Below, in pieces: positions 24,001-33,000 of a DNA stretch of 64,000 nucleotides. The position numbers were made by a program. Position 1 is the stretch's first letter. Each line of letters begins with the position of its first letter. The stretch is from NCBI GenBank assembly GCA_018302765.1, contig JAGVZG010000003.1, positions 11,081 through 75,080 of the forward strand. The letters run 5' to 3'. This stretch comes from Candidatus Woesearchaeota archaeon (GTDB lineage: Archaea; Nanobdellota; Nanobdellia; SCGC-AAA011-G17; GW2011-AR18).

Positions 24001-27000
24001 TACTTCTTCAACATTCTCCAAAGTCTCAGATGGATAATTCCTGATTTCTTTTAATTTATATTCTTTAGAATAACTTTCTATTAATTTTTTCAAATTAGAT
24101 ATAACCTCTCCTTTAGTAGTTCCAGTAGCAGTTACTAAAAGCTCTTTGCACCTTGCAATATATATTTCCTCCTCTTCATAAATAAGTGCAGTAAAAGTTT
24201 TTATTTTCATATATGGCCATTAGAGTAAAAATTTATAAATATGCTCTTTTAAGTTTTATGAACTATAAAAACAACATATTTAAGTATTAATAATTTTGCA
24301 AGTGTATAATGAGTAAAAATCTAAATAATCTAGCTGAAGGTGCTAGCATAATATTCTTAGGGATTGCAATTTCAAAATTATTGCATTACATATACAGGGC
24401 AATTATAGCAAGAATGCTTACTCCTGGAGATTATGGTATAATAATATTAGGCATGTCGGTAATAAGTATATTTGGATGGGTTGCATTATTCGGATTAAAC
24501 CAAGCAGCAGAAAGAAACATAAGTTTTTATCACAATAAAAAAAGAGAGTTAAAAGGTGTTTTATTATCAATATTAAAATTTGGATTTCCACTGGCGCTAG
24601 TACTTTCACTACTGCTTCTAATGCTTTCAAAAGATATAAGTCTTATTCTAAAAAAAGAAAATCTAATACAAATAATCAAGATAATGTCTTTTGGAGTGAT
24701 GGGTTACTCTCTCGCAGAAATTTCAGGCTCTATATTGCGTGGTTTTAAAAAAATAAGGGAATTTGTTTATGTAAAATACATAATAGAACCTGCATCAAGA
24801 ACAATTCTGACAATAATATTTATAATACTTGGATTAAAAATTAAAGGCGCTGCAATAGCCTACATCTTAAGCCTGTTTATTTCAATAGTAATAGCCATGC
24901 TGATAATCAGAAAAACAGCATACAAAGCTATTAAAAAAATAAAAGCTATAAATATGGATTTAAAAATAATAAAATTCTCATGGCCATTATTATTCACAGG
25001 TCTAGTATTCTCAATTACAGGATGGATAGACACATTGATGATAGCTTATTTTTCAACAGAAGAATTAGTTGGTCTGTACAATACAGCACTTCCAACTGCA
25101 GGCATAATTCTTATTACTCAAAGTTCATTTGACGGAGTATTTATTCCCATTATGTCAAGGTTATTTTCAAAAAAAGACTACAAAAACATAAAAGAAAATT
25201 ACGAAAGAGTAACAAAGTGGATAACAATACTGACAATACCTTTATTCATGTCTATAATATTTTTCTCTAAGGGAATTATAAATATATTATTTGGAACGCC
25301 GTATCTAGAAGCATATAAGCCTACAATAATTCTTGCTGTGGGTTTTCTAATGGTTATGATTGTAGGTCCATGTGAAAATATGTTAAATGTAACTTTCAAA
25401 ACAAAACTAAAAATGTATCTAAGAATAATAATGTTAATTATAAATATAATATTAAATCTTATACTAATCCCAAGATATGGAATAAGCGGAGCTGCAATAT
25501 CAACATCAGTAGCACTAACATTTTATAATATATGCTGTTTTATATATGTAAAAAATAAATTCAATGTTAATATTATAAAACTAAAAACAATTTCAATTAT
25601 ATTGGCCAGTGCATTATTGCCATTATTATTAAGTATTTTATACAACCCATTAAATAAGCTTGTAACAATGTCATTCATAATATTATCTTTAATCTATTCA
25701 ACAATAATAATCATACTAATGAAATACCTAAATAAAGAAGATATAATTATTATTTACGATATAGAAAAAAAATTAAACATAAAACACACAATAAGTTCAA
25801 TATTAACAAAATACTCAAAGTAATAATCACTTAATCTTAGCAACAGCAATCCACTCATAAGGCTGCGAAGATGGTACAAGTTCTATTAATCTAAGCAGTA
25901 AATATAAAGTATAAGTAAGTATTTTTATCTTGGAAAACTTAGAGATGAATTCCTGAACCTTAAAGTGGTTTATATTATTAACTAAACTAACAACAGTAAA
26001 TTCATTATCTTCTAACTCTTTAATTATAGTTTTTTTAGTCCAGAATTCATCATAAACAGGCGAAGGATAATGTTTAGTATGCCACTTATAAATAAACCCA
26101 TTAGGAACGTCAAATATCAAATAACTATTTCTTGACATTAATTTCTTTATGCTTTTATAAAGAATTCTCCTTTTACTTATATCAAAGTGCCTAATAAATT
26201 TAAAGCTATAAACAAGATCAAATTTCTTGCCAATATTCATCTTAAAAACATCTACAACTTTCAAATTAAATCTGCCATTTAAATTAACATTAGCTATTTT
26301 CAACATTGCCTTGCTATTATCAACTGCTAATCCATACTTAAAACCATAAACATCTTTAGAAATCCTACCAGGACCTGTAGCAACATCTATAACGCTGCTT
26401 ATTTTTTTATCTCTAATGAATTTATTAATAAATGATATCTGATTGTGATGTATTAATCTCCCTAATGGCCTATTAAACCTGCTATTTATATAGTCCTTAG
26501 CTAACTTCTCATTTTCATAGTACTTCTTTATTTCATTTACTGTTTTTTTCATCTTTAAATCCGAAAAATAATTCATAAAGAACTTTTAAACCCCAAAGAA
26601 GATTAAAACCAATAAAGTAATACAATAAAAAATACTTCATAAAACCAGATAAAACAAATGAATCAATTATAGCAAATAAGAAAAAAACATTATGAAAATA
26701 AGGAATTAAAAACAAATTTTTATATGATCTAACTAATTTTTTCTTAAATGGAATTTTTGCAACATCTTTTCTAAAAGCCTTTTCAGGATGGATTTTTACA
26801 TCTTCTAATCTAACTAACTCCACCATAGAATAGCCAAAAATAGAAAAAACCCCAAAGAACAAAAATAATTTTGATTCTGTAGTCAAGAATATGCTAAAAG
26901 TTAATGCAGATAAAGGTAATAAGTAAGATAACCAAGTAGAAATCCAATCAAAAAATTCTCCCCATTTAAGAGACTTTGTCTTATTATATCTTGCAATCTC

Positions 27001-30000: not shown

Positions 30001-33000
30001 TTCCATCTTCTAGCTTGCTCATAAGATAAATTAATCACAGGATCAGAACTTACTACAGGCATTAAATCTCTAACGCTAACACCTAAAACTTTAGCAACAG
30101 ATCTTAATTCATCTACAGTAGGAATAATATCTCTGCCATCTTCAATAGATTGCATATACTTTAAAGATAAACCAACTTTTTTAGCAAGTATGTCAAGAGG
30201 CATAGATAATTGTTCACGGAAAAACCTAATTAAAGATCCAGAAGCTCCTCCATCAGAATAATTAATTAAAAAATCAGAAGCAGAATTCAAACCTAAAACT
30301 GCTAATTCCTGCTGGGCATCACCCATTAACCTAACACCATAAGTCAAAGCAAGAATAACGCCAAGTTCTCTAGCTTCATTTTTACGAGTTGCAAAAGTAT
30401 GGGGAATATAAGGTGTAATATACATTGAATCTCCTGTATTTGTCTGTACACAAAAACGTTTTCCTCCATGTTCATAATAAAAGTTAACAGGTCCAATGAA
30501 GTATGTAAATTGATGTAAAAAATGCCCATTATTCCAGCACAGTTCTTCTGAATTAGGGTCATTATTATCAACAACTAGAAGTTCTTTTATCCACTCTGGT
30601 CTAAAAAGAGAAGTCCTGCTCATTGCAGTGTCTCTGTATTCATAATAAGGTCTGCCTCCACGATCAAGAACACGAGAAGATCTTTCGCTTTGTTCATTAG
30701 TCATTATTAACGCACCACTACGAGCATCATCTTCAAAAACATAAAAATCCCTTATATTAACTGGCCAAATCTGAGATGCTTTAACAATAAGTTCATGCGG
30801 TATTTCTTCTCTACCGTCAATATATCTCTGCAAAAGAGAAGTATCAATTCCTAATTCACATGCAGCAGTACTAAAATCACGTTTAAGGTCATTTAAAATG
30901 CCAAAAAAATTACGTCCCATTAATTTATTACTTAACATTCCCAACTCCTCCAAATTCAGCAACAGCAGCACAATAATTATCTGGAGAATGTAATTCTCTC
31001 CATCCATGATTCACTTCAACACTTTTAACATTATAACCACGATCTATTATCTCTTGAATTACATCTGTCAAAGAAGCCTTGTAAATTGATTCAGCTTCAT
31101 GAAAATATCCGTCTATATACTTTCCCAAACAATCATGATAAACTTGCATTAAAGACTCTGCACCTCTTCTAGATAAATAAGTAATGCCTATAAACTCAGC
31201 ACTCGCCTGTTCACAAGGAATTGATTTGCCTATTCTTAAAACACGATTTTCTGGTCTACGCAACTGTCTCAAACCTGAATTATTTGTAACAACCAAATCT
31301 AACTTCGATTTATAGTCTGGCTCACGCAGACGATAAGAATTATCAGTAACAATAATAATATCACTATCTTGCCTTGAAGACAAAACTTTTTTAATAATTT
31401 CATCTGTAAATAAAATATCAGAGTAAACTATTAACAATTCATTATTAAATTCCTTTTCAGCACGTGCAAGTGTAGCCATTATTCCTTGATCTTGCATACT
31501 TGCATCACAAAAACGAACACCTTGAACATAAAGTTTCTCTTCATGCTGGCCACGAATTACAACGCAATCGCTAATGCCAACATTCTTTAATGACTGAAGT
31601 TGATAATCAATAACTCTACCATCTCCAAATTGAAGAGAACTGCAAGGCTTATTAGAACACAAATCTCCTAAATTAGTATGCTTACCTGCTGCAGGAATTA
31701 CTACTTTAACGCCATTTTCATAAGCCATTCCTCTGGTCTTTAAGTCATTAAATCCTACAACTTCAAAAATAGTTTTAACAGGAGTACATAACCCATCTGC
31801 TTCTAAAGACCTTCCGTGCGCAAGAATAGATCTGGCAACGCCTTCCATACTTCTATGGGCAGCACGCAGCATATGGTTTGCATAAATTACAACATTAAAT
31901 CCTGCTTCTCTTAATTCATCTTCAGTAATAGAATTATAAGTAGTAGGAACACAAATAAGAGGTTTAAATACACCTAGCTCCCTACATAAAACATGATATT
32001 CTCTAGAAAAAGATAATACTTGGTCTGGCGTATTTTGATTAGAATGTATCATTACGCCATCAACACCTGCTTGAAGATAAATTCTAGCTCGTCCAACAGC
32101 GTCTTCTAAATCACGTCCTGCAATAAAACTTTCTATACGTGAAAAAATAAGTAAATCTTGACTTAGTCTATTATCAATACCCCTACGTAATTTAGCAGCA
32201 AAATCCTTAGGGTCTTCTAATACATGTGAAGAAGTTTTATCCAAACTATTACGTTTAGGCCAAACTTGATCCTCAACAATAACAGCAGAGACACCAAAAT
32301 TAGTAAGACGCTGAAGCAAATAATCAAAATTATTAGAGTCTCCTCCAGTGTCCCCATCAACAATCAAAGGTTTGCGGGTTACATTTGTAATTTCAGCGAC
32401 AGTTTCAATTCTGGAATCAAAACTCACTACTTGAACATCAGGCTGACCTTTTGCTGCTGAATCAGTAAAACTACTGACCCATATGCCATCAAATTCTAAT
32501 GCGCCATTAGAACCATCAATAATATCAACTGAAGCCTTTTCAGCCACTATTGCGCTTAAGCCATTATGTGCTTCTAAAACTCTTACAAATCTACCATTAT
32601 CAAACATAGCTCTAAGCAAACCTCTACGTTTCTCCGGAAGAATAACTTCTCTACTAGGCATTAGCATCACTAAGTGATAAACAAAAAAGAGAACTTATAA
32701 AAAGTTTATGGTAACTAAAACCTGTATATTAAAGAATAATGTTTAATCATATTTTCCAAGAAAAGAATTAATTCTAATTCTAAACATATCTCTCAAACCC
32801 TCAAATACAGTAGTTATTTTTACTCTTTCACTACCTACGTAATGCCACTTAACTGGAGCTCCAACAATTTTAAATCCCTTTTTCTTAGCTATGAATAAAG
32901 TTTCAATATCAAATCCAGGGTTTACAGCAGCTCTTTCAAGTTTGAAATCTTTCTTCCACCTTCGTAGCATTGAAGGAAATATGACCTTAATAGATTTTTT

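Follow-up and report, generated by a model that had tools for sequence, protein, structure and literature searches.

A predicted cassette for methylphosphonate synthesis and cell-envelope attachment in a glycosylation island of Candidatus Woesearchaeota

The methylphosphonate pathway is known from ocean microbes, and its product is a compound that other microbes convert to methane; a search of the literature found no report of the pathway in the group of archaea considered here. The prevailing logic of phosphonate surface tailoring is nucleotidyl activation, and fusion of phosphoenolpyruvate (PEP) mutase (PepM) to a PF12804 nucleotidyltransferase is the commonest bacterial PepM fusion (Rice 2019). 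Loci encoding methylphosphonate synthase (MPnS) in the Thaumarchaeota likewise contain a homologous nucleotidyltransferase. A CDP-alcohol phosphatidyltransferase next to an NTP transferase, pepM and ppd (phosphonopyruvate decarboxylase, Ppd) is also a recognised cluster type, and in Burkholderia and Nostoc members of the transferase family adjoin pepM in clusters of AEP phosphonolipid type. The locus described here is a variant of the known pathway, and its transferase belongs to the family already found beside pepM in AEP clusters.

Five adjacent minus-strand ORFs at 26533-32670 of the window (the whole 64,000-nucleotide stretch that we analysed, from a contig derived from aquifer metagenomes) encode a PEP mutase fused to a LicC-type nucleotidyltransferase, a two-cupin oxygenase, a phosphonopyruvate decarboxylase, an iron alcohol dehydrogenase, and a CDP-alcohol phosphotransferase (Table 1). 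They include every gene that the predicted route to methylphosphonate calls for. All five match their named families far beyond chance; the five-gene phosphonate cassette of the original prediction is thus borne out by profile and structure matches, and its coordinates stand, except for the cupin and transferase starts. The genes are translationally coupled, with overlaps of 11 nt (associated with a GGAGGA) and 4 nt and a gap of 1 nt, and they form the middle of a co-directional run of 10-11 genes (37348 to 25827) in which no overlap or gap exceeds 72 nt. This run sits within a glycosylation island of about 60 kb that, as had been proposed, includes AglB. The window has a GC content of 29.5%, and GC3 of the phosphonate genes (0.15-0.18) is equal to or slightly lower than that of the rest (0.20 +/- 0.03), indicating that they are resident genes. 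The suggested DPANN context is confirmed by proteins 90-100% identical to those of the window that are labelled Candidatus Woesearchaeota in NCBI.

Table 1. Features of the cassette and its surroundings (positions in the window)
Feature	Position	Strand	Basis
Second MOP/Wzx flippase	24309..25823	+	PF01943 at 4.1e-29, PF13440 at 3.4e-26
Class-I SAM methyltransferase	25827..26576	-	PF13649 and PF08241 matches
CDP-alcohol phosphotransferase family membrane enzyme	26533..27240	-	PF01066 (CDP-OH_P_transf); called as 235 aa, start 27240
Group-III iron alcohol dehydrogenase	27300..28445	-	PF00465 at 2.7e-35, PF25137 at 3.4e-29
Ppd, TPP-dependent, single-chain alpha-beta	28442..29584	-	TIGR03297
Two-cupin oxygenase assigned by sequence as MPnS, 450 aa	29586..30938	-	N. 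maritimus MPnS match and signature residues
LicC/MobA-like nucleotidyltransferase domain, C-terminal in PepM fusion	30928..31734	-	PF12804 at 3.6e-9
PEP mutase domain of fusion protein	31735..32670	-	PF13714 at 1.4e-46
GT2 polyprenyl-phosphate glycosyltransferase-like enzyme	32743..33492	-	PF00535 at 6.2e-28
Wzx/MOP-type flippase	33449..34729	-	PF01943 at 1.3e-24
GT4-family (MraY/WecA/AglH-like) polyprenyl-phosphate phospho-sugar transferase	34717..35721	-	PF00953 at 7.2e-30
Polytopic membrane protein, 519 aa	35789..37348	-	Head of co-directional run
AglB/STT3 oligosaccharyltransferase	50505..53144	-	PF02516 at 5.6e-19

The probable function of the cassette is to produce methylphosphonate and link it to an acceptor in the cell envelope. 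The PepM domain would form the C-P bond by converting PEP to phosphonopyruvate, and Ppd would decarboxylate this to phosphonoacetaldehyde, pulling the unfavourable mutase equilibrium forward. The iron alcohol dehydrogenase, predicted to be a phosphonoacetaldehyde reductase, would then yield 2-hydroxyethylphosphonate (2-HEP). By the known MPnS reaction, which depends on O2 and Fe(II), the cupin oxygenase would cut the C1-C2 bond of 2-HEP to give methylphosphonate and CO2. Family chemistry and gene context suggest that the fused nucleotidyltransferase would next combine CTP and the phosphonate into CMP-methylphosphonate, an analogue of a CDP-alcohol, and that the transferase would let an acceptor hydroxyl attack the phosphonyl phosphorus, so that CMP leaves and a methylphosphonate ester remains. 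The acceptor is most likely a lipid-linked sugar or glycan produced by the co-transcribed GT4, GT2, and Wzx enzymes, and the product would be displayed at the surface; the main alternative is a membrane lipid. Support is good for the steps that lead to methylphosphonate, and production of this compound is very likely; activation with CMP followed by transfer to an acceptor in the envelope is favoured more modestly, and we infer the acceptor itself. The originally proposed route, from PEP through 2-HEP to oxidation, CMP activation, and surface transfer, fits every family assignment that could be tested. Woesearchaeota are usually described as anaerobes, and the O2 requirement of MPnS counts against the pathway in such organisms.

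Ppd scores 360.2 bits on TIGR03297 (cut-off 312.5), has GVPCS at residue 20, and finds phosphonopyruvate decarboxylase subunits (9iz3_B, 9iz3_A) as its best solved structures. It clears this equivalog threshold and does not pass either of the sulfopyruvate decarboxylase models, which upholds its original assignment. The best NCBIfam match of the iron alcohol dehydrogenase is the phosphonate-cluster model TIGR03405, but its 166 bits fall far below the cut-off of 423.7, a shortfall that counts against the pathway; its position after Ppd is conserved in nearly all MPnS loci.

Chance does not explain the grouping, since the five genes are found together again in lineages that share only 54-61% protein identity with the window. 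In one related contig (L087) the island is complete and its gene order unchanged, and another (L089) has the PepM-nucleotidyltransferase fusion and MPnS before the contig ends. In a third (L091) the transferase lies on the opposite side of PepM, a rearrangement better explained by a functional link than by inherited order. A parallel MPnS cassette is found in a second DPANN clade (L012); there, a Fom1-type cytidylyltransferase is fused to PepM and a cytidylate kinase directly precedes the CDP-alcohol transferase, an arrangement that fits with CTP use and CMP release.

Of the two differences named in the original prediction, it is the CDP-alcohol-type transferase that sets the window cassette apart from other MPnS clusters. 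Its homologues are found at 7 of the 11 DPANN-type MPnS loci vs 1 of 69 others (Fisher p = 8e-7, over loci that are phylogenetically non-independent). The protein scores 32.5 bits on PF01066 (cut-off 22) and matches AF2299 (4o6m) at 1.9e-7; its AF2 model (pLDDT 79.7) matches AF2299 and IPCT-DIPPS at TM 0.65-0.67. We predict that it moves the phosphonyl group from CMP-phosphonate onto an alcohol acceptor. Its signature, DYVDGEIARYNKTKSLKWGEFFDWIST (26935-27015), has Thr at the position of the fourth conserved Asp, where the subfamily mostly has His (103 of 140 sequences). This substitution, which had gone unnoticed, makes the catalytic competence or mechanism of the enzyme uncertain and counts against the pathway.

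Transfer of the phosphonyl group from CMP-phosphonate to archaeol or diacylglycerol, giving a membrane lipid with a methylphosphonate headgroup instead of a glycan, is possible but doubtful. Choline/ethanolamine phosphotransferases acting with CMP-AEP provide a model for such a phosphonolipid, the Burkholderia and Nostoc clusters have been read in this way, and lipid headgroup chemistry is the most familiar role of the transferase family, with PIP synthases among the fold matches; LPG_synthase_TM genes also adjoin the cassette in L091. However, genes for a phospho-sugar transferase, a polyprenyl-phosphate GT2 enzyme, and a Wzx flippase lie in the same run as that of the transferase. Among solved structures the enzyme is closest to AF2299 and IPCT-DIPPS, and the substrates of DIPPS are soluble inositol compounds. 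Both of the other subfamily members that we looked up are in neighbourhoods of surface-polysaccharide type (one with nucleotidyltransferases and a flippase, one with a glycosyltransferase), and DPANN archaea are generally without lipid synthesis.

PF13714 and PF12804 both fall within one 580-aa ORF, and of the best 120 homologues listed, among them proteins from Nitrospinae, Marinimicrobia, and Promethearchaeota, all but five have both domains recorded. The fused PntC, originally regarded as part of a different gene complement, is therefore an ordinary fusion that does not set the cassette apart. Three solved structures match the nucleotidyltransferase domain: Streptococcus pneumoniae LicC (1jyk, a CTP:phosphocholine cytidylyltransferase) at 3.9e-6 and two sugar-1-phosphate nucleotidyltransferases, the better of which is 2ggo at 2.8e-6. 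Homologues (26-32% identity) are present in most MPnS loci, and we predict from sequence that the domain is a PntC-like phosphonate cytidylyltransferase. Its nucleotide and phosphonate specificity cannot be read from the sequence, and 2-HEP is a possible substrate, as for Fom1. Fom1, also a PepM-cytidylyltransferase fusion, cytidylylates HEP (Rice 2019, in its citation of Cho 2017). By analogy, CMP-HEP could be made here and 2-HEP, or both phosphonates, attached, with MPnS forming a side branch to free methylphosphonate; the exopolysaccharide of Stackebrandtia is known to bear HEP conjugates. We consider this unlikely, as MPnS is translationally coupled between the fusion and Ppd, no relative of the cassette lacks it, and Nitrosopumilus maritimus, with a homologous nucleotidyltransferase at its locus, makes a methylphosphonate adduct.

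Against the PEP mutase model TIGR02320 the N-terminal domain of the fusion reaches 312.8 bits, vs 148.6 on the phosphonopyruvate hydrolase model and 97 on methylisocitrate lyase, and its best solved structure is PEP phosphomutase (5unc at 3.5e-45); the comparison with methylisocitrate lyase, set beforehand as a check, thus came out for PepM. The score misses the TIGR02320 cut-off of 319.55 by 7 bits, and the motif EDQVWPKRNS (32245-32274), also overlooked originally, reads EDQx5NS, where PEP mutases are defined by EDKx5NS; both features count against the pathway. Published surveys would consequently filter this protein out. The Lys-to-Gln change is present in 3 of the 5 closest fusion proteins and in 0 of 115 more distant ones. 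With two defining motifs non-canonical and a score just under the cut-off, the cassette could be decaying or repurposed, its PepM and transferase inactive and the phosphonate conjugate absent. This is very unlikely: six independent metagenome contigs carry all its genes intact, with sequences that are identical or almost so, and 41 indexed blocks of the assembly collection contain the exact Ppd protein. EDQ, which is the form in related lyases of the superfamily, is kept in two proteins only 54-55% identical (P0142, P0143), as is the transferase Thr in orthologues at 59-61% identity (P0129, P0130), indicating that both variants are under selection.

The assignment of the oxygenase to MPnS rests on its signature residues. 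Its start is corrected from 31007, which over-extends the ORF, to an ATG at 30938; this codon follows a GGAGGA at a distance of 8 nt, and there is an 11-nt overlap with the PepM stop. The 450-aa protein is called on all six metagenome contigs. It matches the N. maritimus MPnS structure 6b9s at 2.1e-128 over residues 30-472, with 432 bits vs 284 for the class-II HEPD 6b9r. The field criterion for MPnS, as Born 2017 is quoted in PMC11978286, is a 2-His-1-Gln triad together with Phe and Ile. The window protein has iron ligands H139 (30522-30524), Q143 (30510-30512), and H180 (30399-30401) and specificity residues F153 (30480-30482) and I174 (30417-30419), all checked at the codon level and equivalent to H148/Q152/H190, F162, and I184 of the N. 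maritimus enzyme. All five are invariant across 19 homologues. Among the 80 other MPnS/HEPD loci, the F/I vs Y/G split is clean in 64; Phe/Ile occurs in 56 (including all Pelagibacter loci and all archaeal loci but one), Tyr with Gly or Ala in 22, and Tyr/Ile in 4. The family placement originally made (HepD/MPnS bi-cupin) therefore stands, and of the two products then left open, hydroxymethylphosphonate or methylphosphonate, the signature residues settle on the latter. That the enzyme is instead a HEPD-type dioxygenase releasing hydroxymethylphosphonate and formate is most improbable: it shares only 47% identity with the characterised N. maritimus enzyme, its clade forms a separate deep branch in a rough neighbour-joining tree, and very few residues can reportedly switch the reaction outcome in this family, but all five diagnostic residues and the bit scores are of MPnS type, and Tyr with Gly or Ala occupies the specificity positions in all 19 actinomycete loci, which are taken as HEPD-type.

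Several flanking genes are conserved with the cassette. The 519-aa membrane protein had no match in Pfam or NCBIfam and is kept upstream in three contigs (L001, L003, L006). The GT4 phospho-sugar transferase is likely the initiating enzyme of the lipid-linked glycan. The GT2 enzyme is encoded immediately upstream of PepM and has similarity to PgfS, ArnC, and dolichyl-phosphate hexose transferase. It too is kept as a neighbour in L087, as are the position of the second flippase, convergent with the gene run, and the arrangement of the SAM methyltransferase gene, which in the window overlaps the transferase gene by 44 nt. The methyltransferase is a probable operon member. AglB/STT3, about 18 kb from the cassette in the same island and here context only, has WWDYG at residue 593, and its sole NCBIfam match is the archaeal STT3 model TIGR04154.

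The ORF listing of the window and profile searches bear out a cassette of five consecutive phosphonate genes on one strand, which lies at the center of a co-directional block whose members overlap or are separated by at most 72 nt. In order, this block encodes a polytopic membrane protein, a GT4 phospho-sugar transferase, a Wzx flippase, a GT2 enzyme, a PEP mutase (PepM)-nucleotidyltransferase fusion, a cupin, phosphonopyruvate decarboxylase (Ppd), an alcohol dehydrogenase, a CDP-alcohol transferase, and a SAM methyltransferase. The surface-glycan island around it contains three SGNH/AlgX-like proteins, two carbamoyltransferases, a PMT-type GT-C enzyme, many GT1, GT2 and GT4 enzymes, two DegT aminotransferases, four dehydratase/epimerases, sugar nucleotidyltransferases, three radical-SAM proteins, and two MOP flippases. 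An oligosaccharyltransferase (STT3/AglB) with its WWDYG motif is present in the same locus, as the original prediction of an AglB-containing glycosylation island had stated. The paralogous SGNH/AlgX-like proteins and carbamoyltransferases suggest that the same surface glycans contain O-acetylated and carbamoylated sugars.

Coordinates of features in the window and in loci retrieved for comparison (L-numbers)
Feature	Position	Strand	Details
Threonyl-tRNA synthetase	2320-4035	+	only housekeeping gene of the window
Surface-glycan island	~4 kb to 63 kb		
Three paralogous SGNH/AlgX-like proteins and two paralogous carbamoyltransferases	4037-7770, 7748-9496 / 13983-15716		
B12-binding radical SAM protein	22143-23579	-	~3 kb from cassette; same place in L087
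Class-I SAM methyltransferase	25827-26576	-	44-nt overlap with end of CDP-alcohol transferase gene; pairing kept in L087
Co-directional block	37348 to 25827	-	
Phosphonate cassette, five ORFs	26533-32670	-	
PEP_mutase domain (PF13714)	residues 20-283 of 580-aa ORF	-	1.4e-46
MobA/LicC-like nucleotidyltransferase domain (PF12804)	residues 323-447 of 580-aa ORF	-	3.6e-9, 37.5 bits (cut-off 27)
519-aa ORF heading the phosphonate-containing run	35789-37348	-	no Pfam or NCBIfam match
Further sizeable island ORFs	42111-43085, 46811-48277, 48964-50466		no Pfam match
AglB/STT3, 879 aa	50505-53144	-	PF02516, 5.6e-19; WWDYG at residue 593; 18 kb from cassette
PepM-like gene, L058 (Woesearchaeota)	2011-2748		EDKx5NS absent
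PepM-like gene, L047 (gammaproteobacterial)	11379-12206		EDKx5NS absent
Stand-alone NTP_transferase, L087	13581-14345		opposite strand, just after alcohol dehydrogenase
Stand-alone NTP_transferase, L091	13562-14320		opposite strand, just after alcohol dehydrogenase
298-aa protein without family, L012	11416-12312		between MPnS and Ppd
Cytidylate kinase, L012	14678-15415		PF02224, 7.9e-51; between alcohol dehydrogenase and CDP-alcohol transferase

The cupin had been placed among the HepD/MPnS-family bi-cupins. The family assignment stands and the enzyme can now be named methylphosphonate synthase (MPnS), while its signature residues and structural match speak against the alternative product, hydroxymethylphosphonate, which HEPD-type dioxygenases form together with formate. 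We take its start to be the ATG at 30938 (450 aa): it follows a GGAGGA by 8 nt, gives an 11-nt overlap with the PepM stop, and is used in the gene calls of six of six metagenome contigs; the longer form starting at 31007 (473 aa) is over-extended, reaching 80 nt into the PepM gene. Among solved structures, the protein aligns end to end (residues 30-472) with the MPnS of Nitrosopumilus maritimus (6b9s; 2.1e-128, 432 bits), versus 284 bits for the class-II HEPD of Streptomyces albus (6b9r) and 26 bits for HppE. It has the full-length MPnS architecture, an HTH-like and a cupin domain occurring twice, and is nearer MPnS than HEPD or HppE. The MPnS criterion of Born 2017, in the form quoted in PMC11978286, is a 2-His-1-Gln triad together with a Phe and an Ile by which the Gln is kept on the iron. 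In the window protein H139, Q143 and H180 (codons checked; invariant in 19 homologues) align with H148, Q152 and H190 of the N. maritimus enzyme, and F153 and I174 correspond to its F162 and I184, positions at which class-II HEPD has Tyr and Gly. As a control, we read the specificity columns in 86 other loci, with counts given for 80 (excluding copies of the window's own contig): Phe/Ile is found in 56 of 80, including all Pelagibacter loci and all archaeal loci but one, Tyr with Gly or Ala in 22 of 80, including 19 of 19 from actinomycetes, and Tyr/Ile in four of the other loci, three of them from Chloroflexota. With MPnS-type residues at all five positions, and scores that agree, the pathway is predicted to end in methylphosphonate and not hydroxymethylphosphonate; judged from its sequence, the cupin would convert 2-hydroxyethylphosphonate (2-HEP) and O2 to methylphosphonate and CO2.

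The PepM domain has TIGR02320 as its best model (312.8 bits, 7 bits under the cut-off of 319.55), scores 148.6 bits and 97 bits on the rival superfamily models for phosphonopyruvate hydrolase and methylisocitrate lyase, and finds its best solved structure in PEP phosphomutase 5unc. Its active-site loop, EDQVWPKRNS, departs from EDKx5NS by a change of Lys to Gln; it retains the Asn-Ser pair that sets the mutase apart from phosphonopyruvate hydrolase, for which 2dua shows Thr-Ser. EDQ is the form seen in related lyases of the isocitrate lyase superfamily. Among the 120 closest PepM-nucleotidyltransferase fusions listed, 117 have EDK and three have EDQ, the latter being the window protein and two relatives; as these relatives are only 54-55% identical to it, the change is evidently retained, neither an error nor recent decay. 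Ppd is encoded two genes downstream of PepM in the translationally coupled block. In two of the comparison loci, L058 and L047, a single PepM-like gene lies in the flanks retrieved, and it reads EDN...KKCS or EDNQFPKRCS; motif filters would overlook this second group as well. Both loci also contain CDP-alcohol transferase matches.

The nucleotidyltransferase domain fused to PepM matches LicC (1jyk, 3.9e-6). That this domain would use CTP and a phosphonate is suggested by the CDP-alcohol-family enzyme downstream and by the cytidylate kinase in L012, a parallel cassette from the DPANN archaea. The fusion had been put forward as a distinguishing feature in the form of a fused phosphonate cytidylyltransferase (PntC), a claim of novelty that we reject: bacterial phosphonate tailoring as a rule relies on nucleotidyl activation and on PepM-PF12804 fusions (Rice 2019), and the arrangement is ordinary among bacterial fusions and the listed homologues. 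An extra, stand-alone NTP_transferase occurs in two related loci, L087 and L091, at the place where the window has a 59-nt gap.

Ppd (380 aa) passes its equivalog model, TIGR03297, with 360.2 bits (cut-off 312.5) and fails the sulfopyruvate decarboxylase models (beta, 160.2 against 221.5; alpha, 90.2 against 147.95); among solved structures, phosphonopyruvate decarboxylase subunits are closest to it. The alcohol dehydrogenase (381 aa) has the group-III iron-dependent fold (PF00465, 2.7e-35; PF25137, 3.4e-29). Its top match, TIGR03405, reaches only 166 bits versus a cut-off of 423.7, below the equivalog level, so a role as phosphonoacetaldehyde reductase rests mainly on its conserved position after Ppd.

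The last enzyme of the cassette, the CDP-alcohol transferase (237/235 aa), matches PF01066 with 32.5 bits (cut-off 22). Its predicted AlphaFold structure (pLDDT 79.7) resembles AF2299 and IPCT-DIPPS of Archaeoglobus fulgidus (TM 0.65-0.67, probability 1.0). These are the best matches in both sequence and fold, although the identity is only 20-23% and the window protein is without their cytoplasmic N-terminal domain. Of the eight conserved residues of the signature D-x2-D-G-x2-A-R-x8-G-x3-D-x3-D, seven are present; Thr takes the place of the last Asp, and the spacer measures 9 residues. In the alignment to AF2299, D-x2-D-G-x2-A-R, the Gly, and the third Asp are in place, with the spacer one residue longer, and shifting the register of the motif brings no fourth Asp or His within reach. 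An HMMER search delimits a subfamily of ~240 aa with 711 representatives at E <= 1e-30, in which the consensus at the fourth-Asp position is His (103 of 140 sequences). Thr is found there in the window and in four other sequences, two of which are orthologues (P0129 and P0130, 59-61% identical). Two other members of the subfamily are encoded in polysaccharide-type neighborhoods without PepM, one with nucleotidyltransferases and a flippase, the other with a glycosyltransferase.

The predicted route, from PEP to a phosphonate on the cell surface, is supported, with its oxygenase resolved to MPnS. As the sequences support it, the PepM domain would convert PEP to phosphonopyruvate, Ppd would form phosphonoacetaldehyde, the iron-dependent alcohol dehydrogenase, placed here largely by gene position, would reduce this to 2-HEP, and MPnS, with O2 and Fe(II), would produce methylphosphonate. 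We infer that the fused LicC-like domain then uses CTP to make CMP-methylphosphonate, from which the CDP-alcohol-family enzyme may transfer the methylphosphonyl group to a hydroxyl with release of CMP; in cassettes of the L012 type, the cytidylate kinase could recycle the CMP. The acceptor is probably a lipid-linked sugar or glycan made by the products of the co-transcribed GT4, GT2, and flippase genes; a membrane lipid is a less likely acceptor. This scheme is least secure as regards what serves as acceptor, which substrate the nucleotidyltransferase takes, and whether the Thr-variant transferase is competent.

The guess that the DNA comes from a DPANN archaeon is supported: the MPnS falls in a 90% cluster with MBS3152087.1 and the transferase has a 100% identical match in NCBI, both labeled Candidatus Woesearchaeota archaeon; this phylum belongs to the DPANN kingdom Nanobdellati. 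A Ppd of exactly this sequence occurs in 41 indexed blocks of the assembly collection, and among the contigs displayed are some from groundwater metagenomes, such as ERZ909578 'groundwater.metagenome' and ANAN16 scaffolds. The nearest species representative is Woesearchaeota RIFCSPHIGHO2_12_FULL_30_20 (MPnS 53% identical), and the closest MPnS homologues (53-57% identical) were found in additional metagenomes, from aquifers and elsewhere. In L087 (GCA_053531355.1), the whole island is kept in the same order; in L089, the PepM-nucleotidyltransferase fusion is followed by MPnS and the contig ends in the next gene; and L091 has the same four core genes with the CDP-alcohol transferase shifted upstream of PepM.

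A second DPANN group, from Nanoarchaeota and Woesearchaeota MAGs that include groundwater ones (L008, L009, L012, L014, L015, and L017), has a parallel cassette with the order seen in the window (PepM, MPnS, Ppd, alcohol dehydrogenase, and CDP-alcohol transferase) and a similar glycosylation context. It differs in several respects. In L012, the member of the group studied closely, an unrelated, Fom1-type cytidylyltransferase (PF01467) is attached to the N-terminus of PepM instead of the LicC type, and the transferase has His where that of the window has Thr; PepM in all six loci has the canonical EDK and not EDQ; and the MPnS proteins belong to another clade, nearer that of the Thaumarchaeota. 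In a rough neighbor-joining tree, which has no support values and serves only to tell two DPANN clades apart, the clade of the window and the second clade lie apart, both within the Phe/Ile part of the family. Homologues of the transferase are found in seven of 11 DPANN-type MPnS loci versus one of 69 others (Fisher p = 8e-7, for loci that are not independent of one another).

The locus represents a known pathway in a new version and not a system of a new kind: for N. maritimus and SAR11, both the route by four enzymes and the notion of a surface methylphosphonate ester are already described. The marine Thaumarchaeota, with N. maritimus SCM1 as their example (Metcalf 2012; MPnS structure 6b9s, Born 2017), share with the window PepM, Ppd, the iron-dependent alcohol dehydrogenase, an MPnS with the same signature residues, and a homologous LicC-type nucleotidyltransferase, and their product is taken to be a surface polymer that bears methylphosphonate esters. 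However, the identities are only about 47% for MPnS and about 31% for PepM. The thaumarchaeal Ppd matches as two segments, with the nucleotidyltransferase directly downstream of the second and not fused to PepM, and there is no CDP-alcohol transferase within 10 kb; published descriptions of thaumarchaeal neighborhoods mention instead a LicD-type choline phosphotransferase, a choline kinase, and an arylsulfatase. The hosts also differ, a free-living marine ammonia oxidizer as against a groundwater DPANN archaeon. Pelagibacter (SAR11), a bacterial host, likewise has PepM, Ppd, an alcohol dehydrogenase, and an MPnS of the Phe/Ile type together, the last 38-41% identical to that of the window, but no CDP-alcohol transferase match and, in most loci, no match to the nucleotidyltransferase domain.

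Bacterial PntC/Ppm fusions (Rice et al. 2019) resemble the window in combining PepM with a PF12804 LicC-like domain beside cell-surface glycan genes. The characterized PntCs, however, activate 2-aminoethylphosphonate (AEP) in pathways with an AEP transaminase, whereas the window has the alcohol dehydrogenase and MPnS branch, and its PepM would not pass the EDKx5NS filter of that survey. Gene clusters of the AEP phosphonolipid type in Burkholderia and Nostoc (after Yu et al. 2013) bring together a CDP-alcohol phosphatidyltransferase, an NTP transferase, pepM, and ppd. They differ in encoding an AEP transaminase and a 2-oxoglutarate oxygenase, for aminoethylphosphonate headgroups in place of the methylphosphonate predicted here, and the window transferase belongs to the ~240-aa subfamily with the signature DxxDGxxAR-x8-GxxxDxxxH, its His further changed to Thr.

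Searching the literature for MPnS or pepM in combination with Woesearchaeota, DPANN, or Nanoarchaeota yielded no relevant paper, and in the literature searched we found no description of MPnS or any phosphonate pathway in DPANN archaea, of an MPnS branch paired with a CDP-alcohol-type transferase, or of the EDQ form of PepM. The interest of the locus is ecological and methodological, as a candidate groundwater source of methylphosphonate, as the site of an O2-dependent enzyme, and as a blind spot of motif-based surveys. Woesearchaeota are usually modeled as anaerobic symbionts with minimal metabolism; the cassette places an O2-dependent iron enzyme in this lineage, and some related MAGs have 'HIGHO2' in their sample names. 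C-P lyase releases methane from methylphosphonate in oxic water, and among archaea the producers known so far are marine Thaumarchaeota. In groundwater, a 2025 study of aerobic methane production found MPnS genes in only three samples and, in the passages concerned, names no producer. The locus and its relatives make aquifer Woesearchaeota and Nanoarchaeota candidate methylphosphonate producers. We put forward tentatively, as a possibility somewhat short of an even chance, that aquifer DPANN archaea are an overlooked terrestrial source of methylphosphonate, displayed on their envelope via CMP-methylphosphonate and a divergent CDP-alcohol phosphotransferase lacking the usual catalytic Asp, a route that has not been described for any methylphosphonate producer; if so, they would supply the missing producer for the C-P-lyase-dependent aerobic methane formation recently proposed in groundwater. 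A phosphatase-resistant phosphonate decoration of the cell surface is also suggested, and it could play a part in attaching to a host or evading phages.

The same proposal, if true, would mean that surveys based on EDKx5NS, and current annotation, undercount phosphonate producers. Both main PepM inventories, including Rice 2019, filter on this motif, so the window PepM would be dropped; it also falls just short of TIGR02320, and the DPANN MPnS homologues are hidden because NCBI names them 'helix-turn-helix domain-containing protein'.

We considered recent horizontal transfer of the cassette and rejected it. The window has a GC content of 29.5%; the raised GC of the phosphonate genes (0.33-0.35) sits in codon positions 1 and 2, and their GC3 (0.15-0.18) is at or slightly below that of the rest of the window (0.20 +/- 0.03), indicating that they are long-resident.

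The B12-binding radical SAM protein near the cassette was considered as a phosphonate methylase of the Fom3 or PhpK type. This is unsupported: its best match is BchE (178 bits), ahead of the P-methyltransferase models Sden_1168 (132 bits) and PhpK (113 bits), and all of these scores are far below the cut-offs. Rfam and ARAGORN scans found no rRNA or tRNA in the window, so the placement of the organism relies on the NCBI labels of proteins 90-100% identical to those encoded here and on the relatives. The threonyl-tRNA synthetase passes the general thrS model (685 bits), scores 216 bits against a cut-off of 484 on PRK03991, and matches the SAD domain and no other N-terminal domain. Among the comparison loci, four TPA MAGs labeled 'uncultured Methanosarcinales archaeon' (L009, L013, L014, and L015) have the MPnS gene order of the Nanoarchaeota loci, and all but L013 also fall in the Nanoarchaeota MPnS clade; the label looks doubtful. 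L022, labeled 'Patescibacteria', has a thaumarchaeal-type locus.
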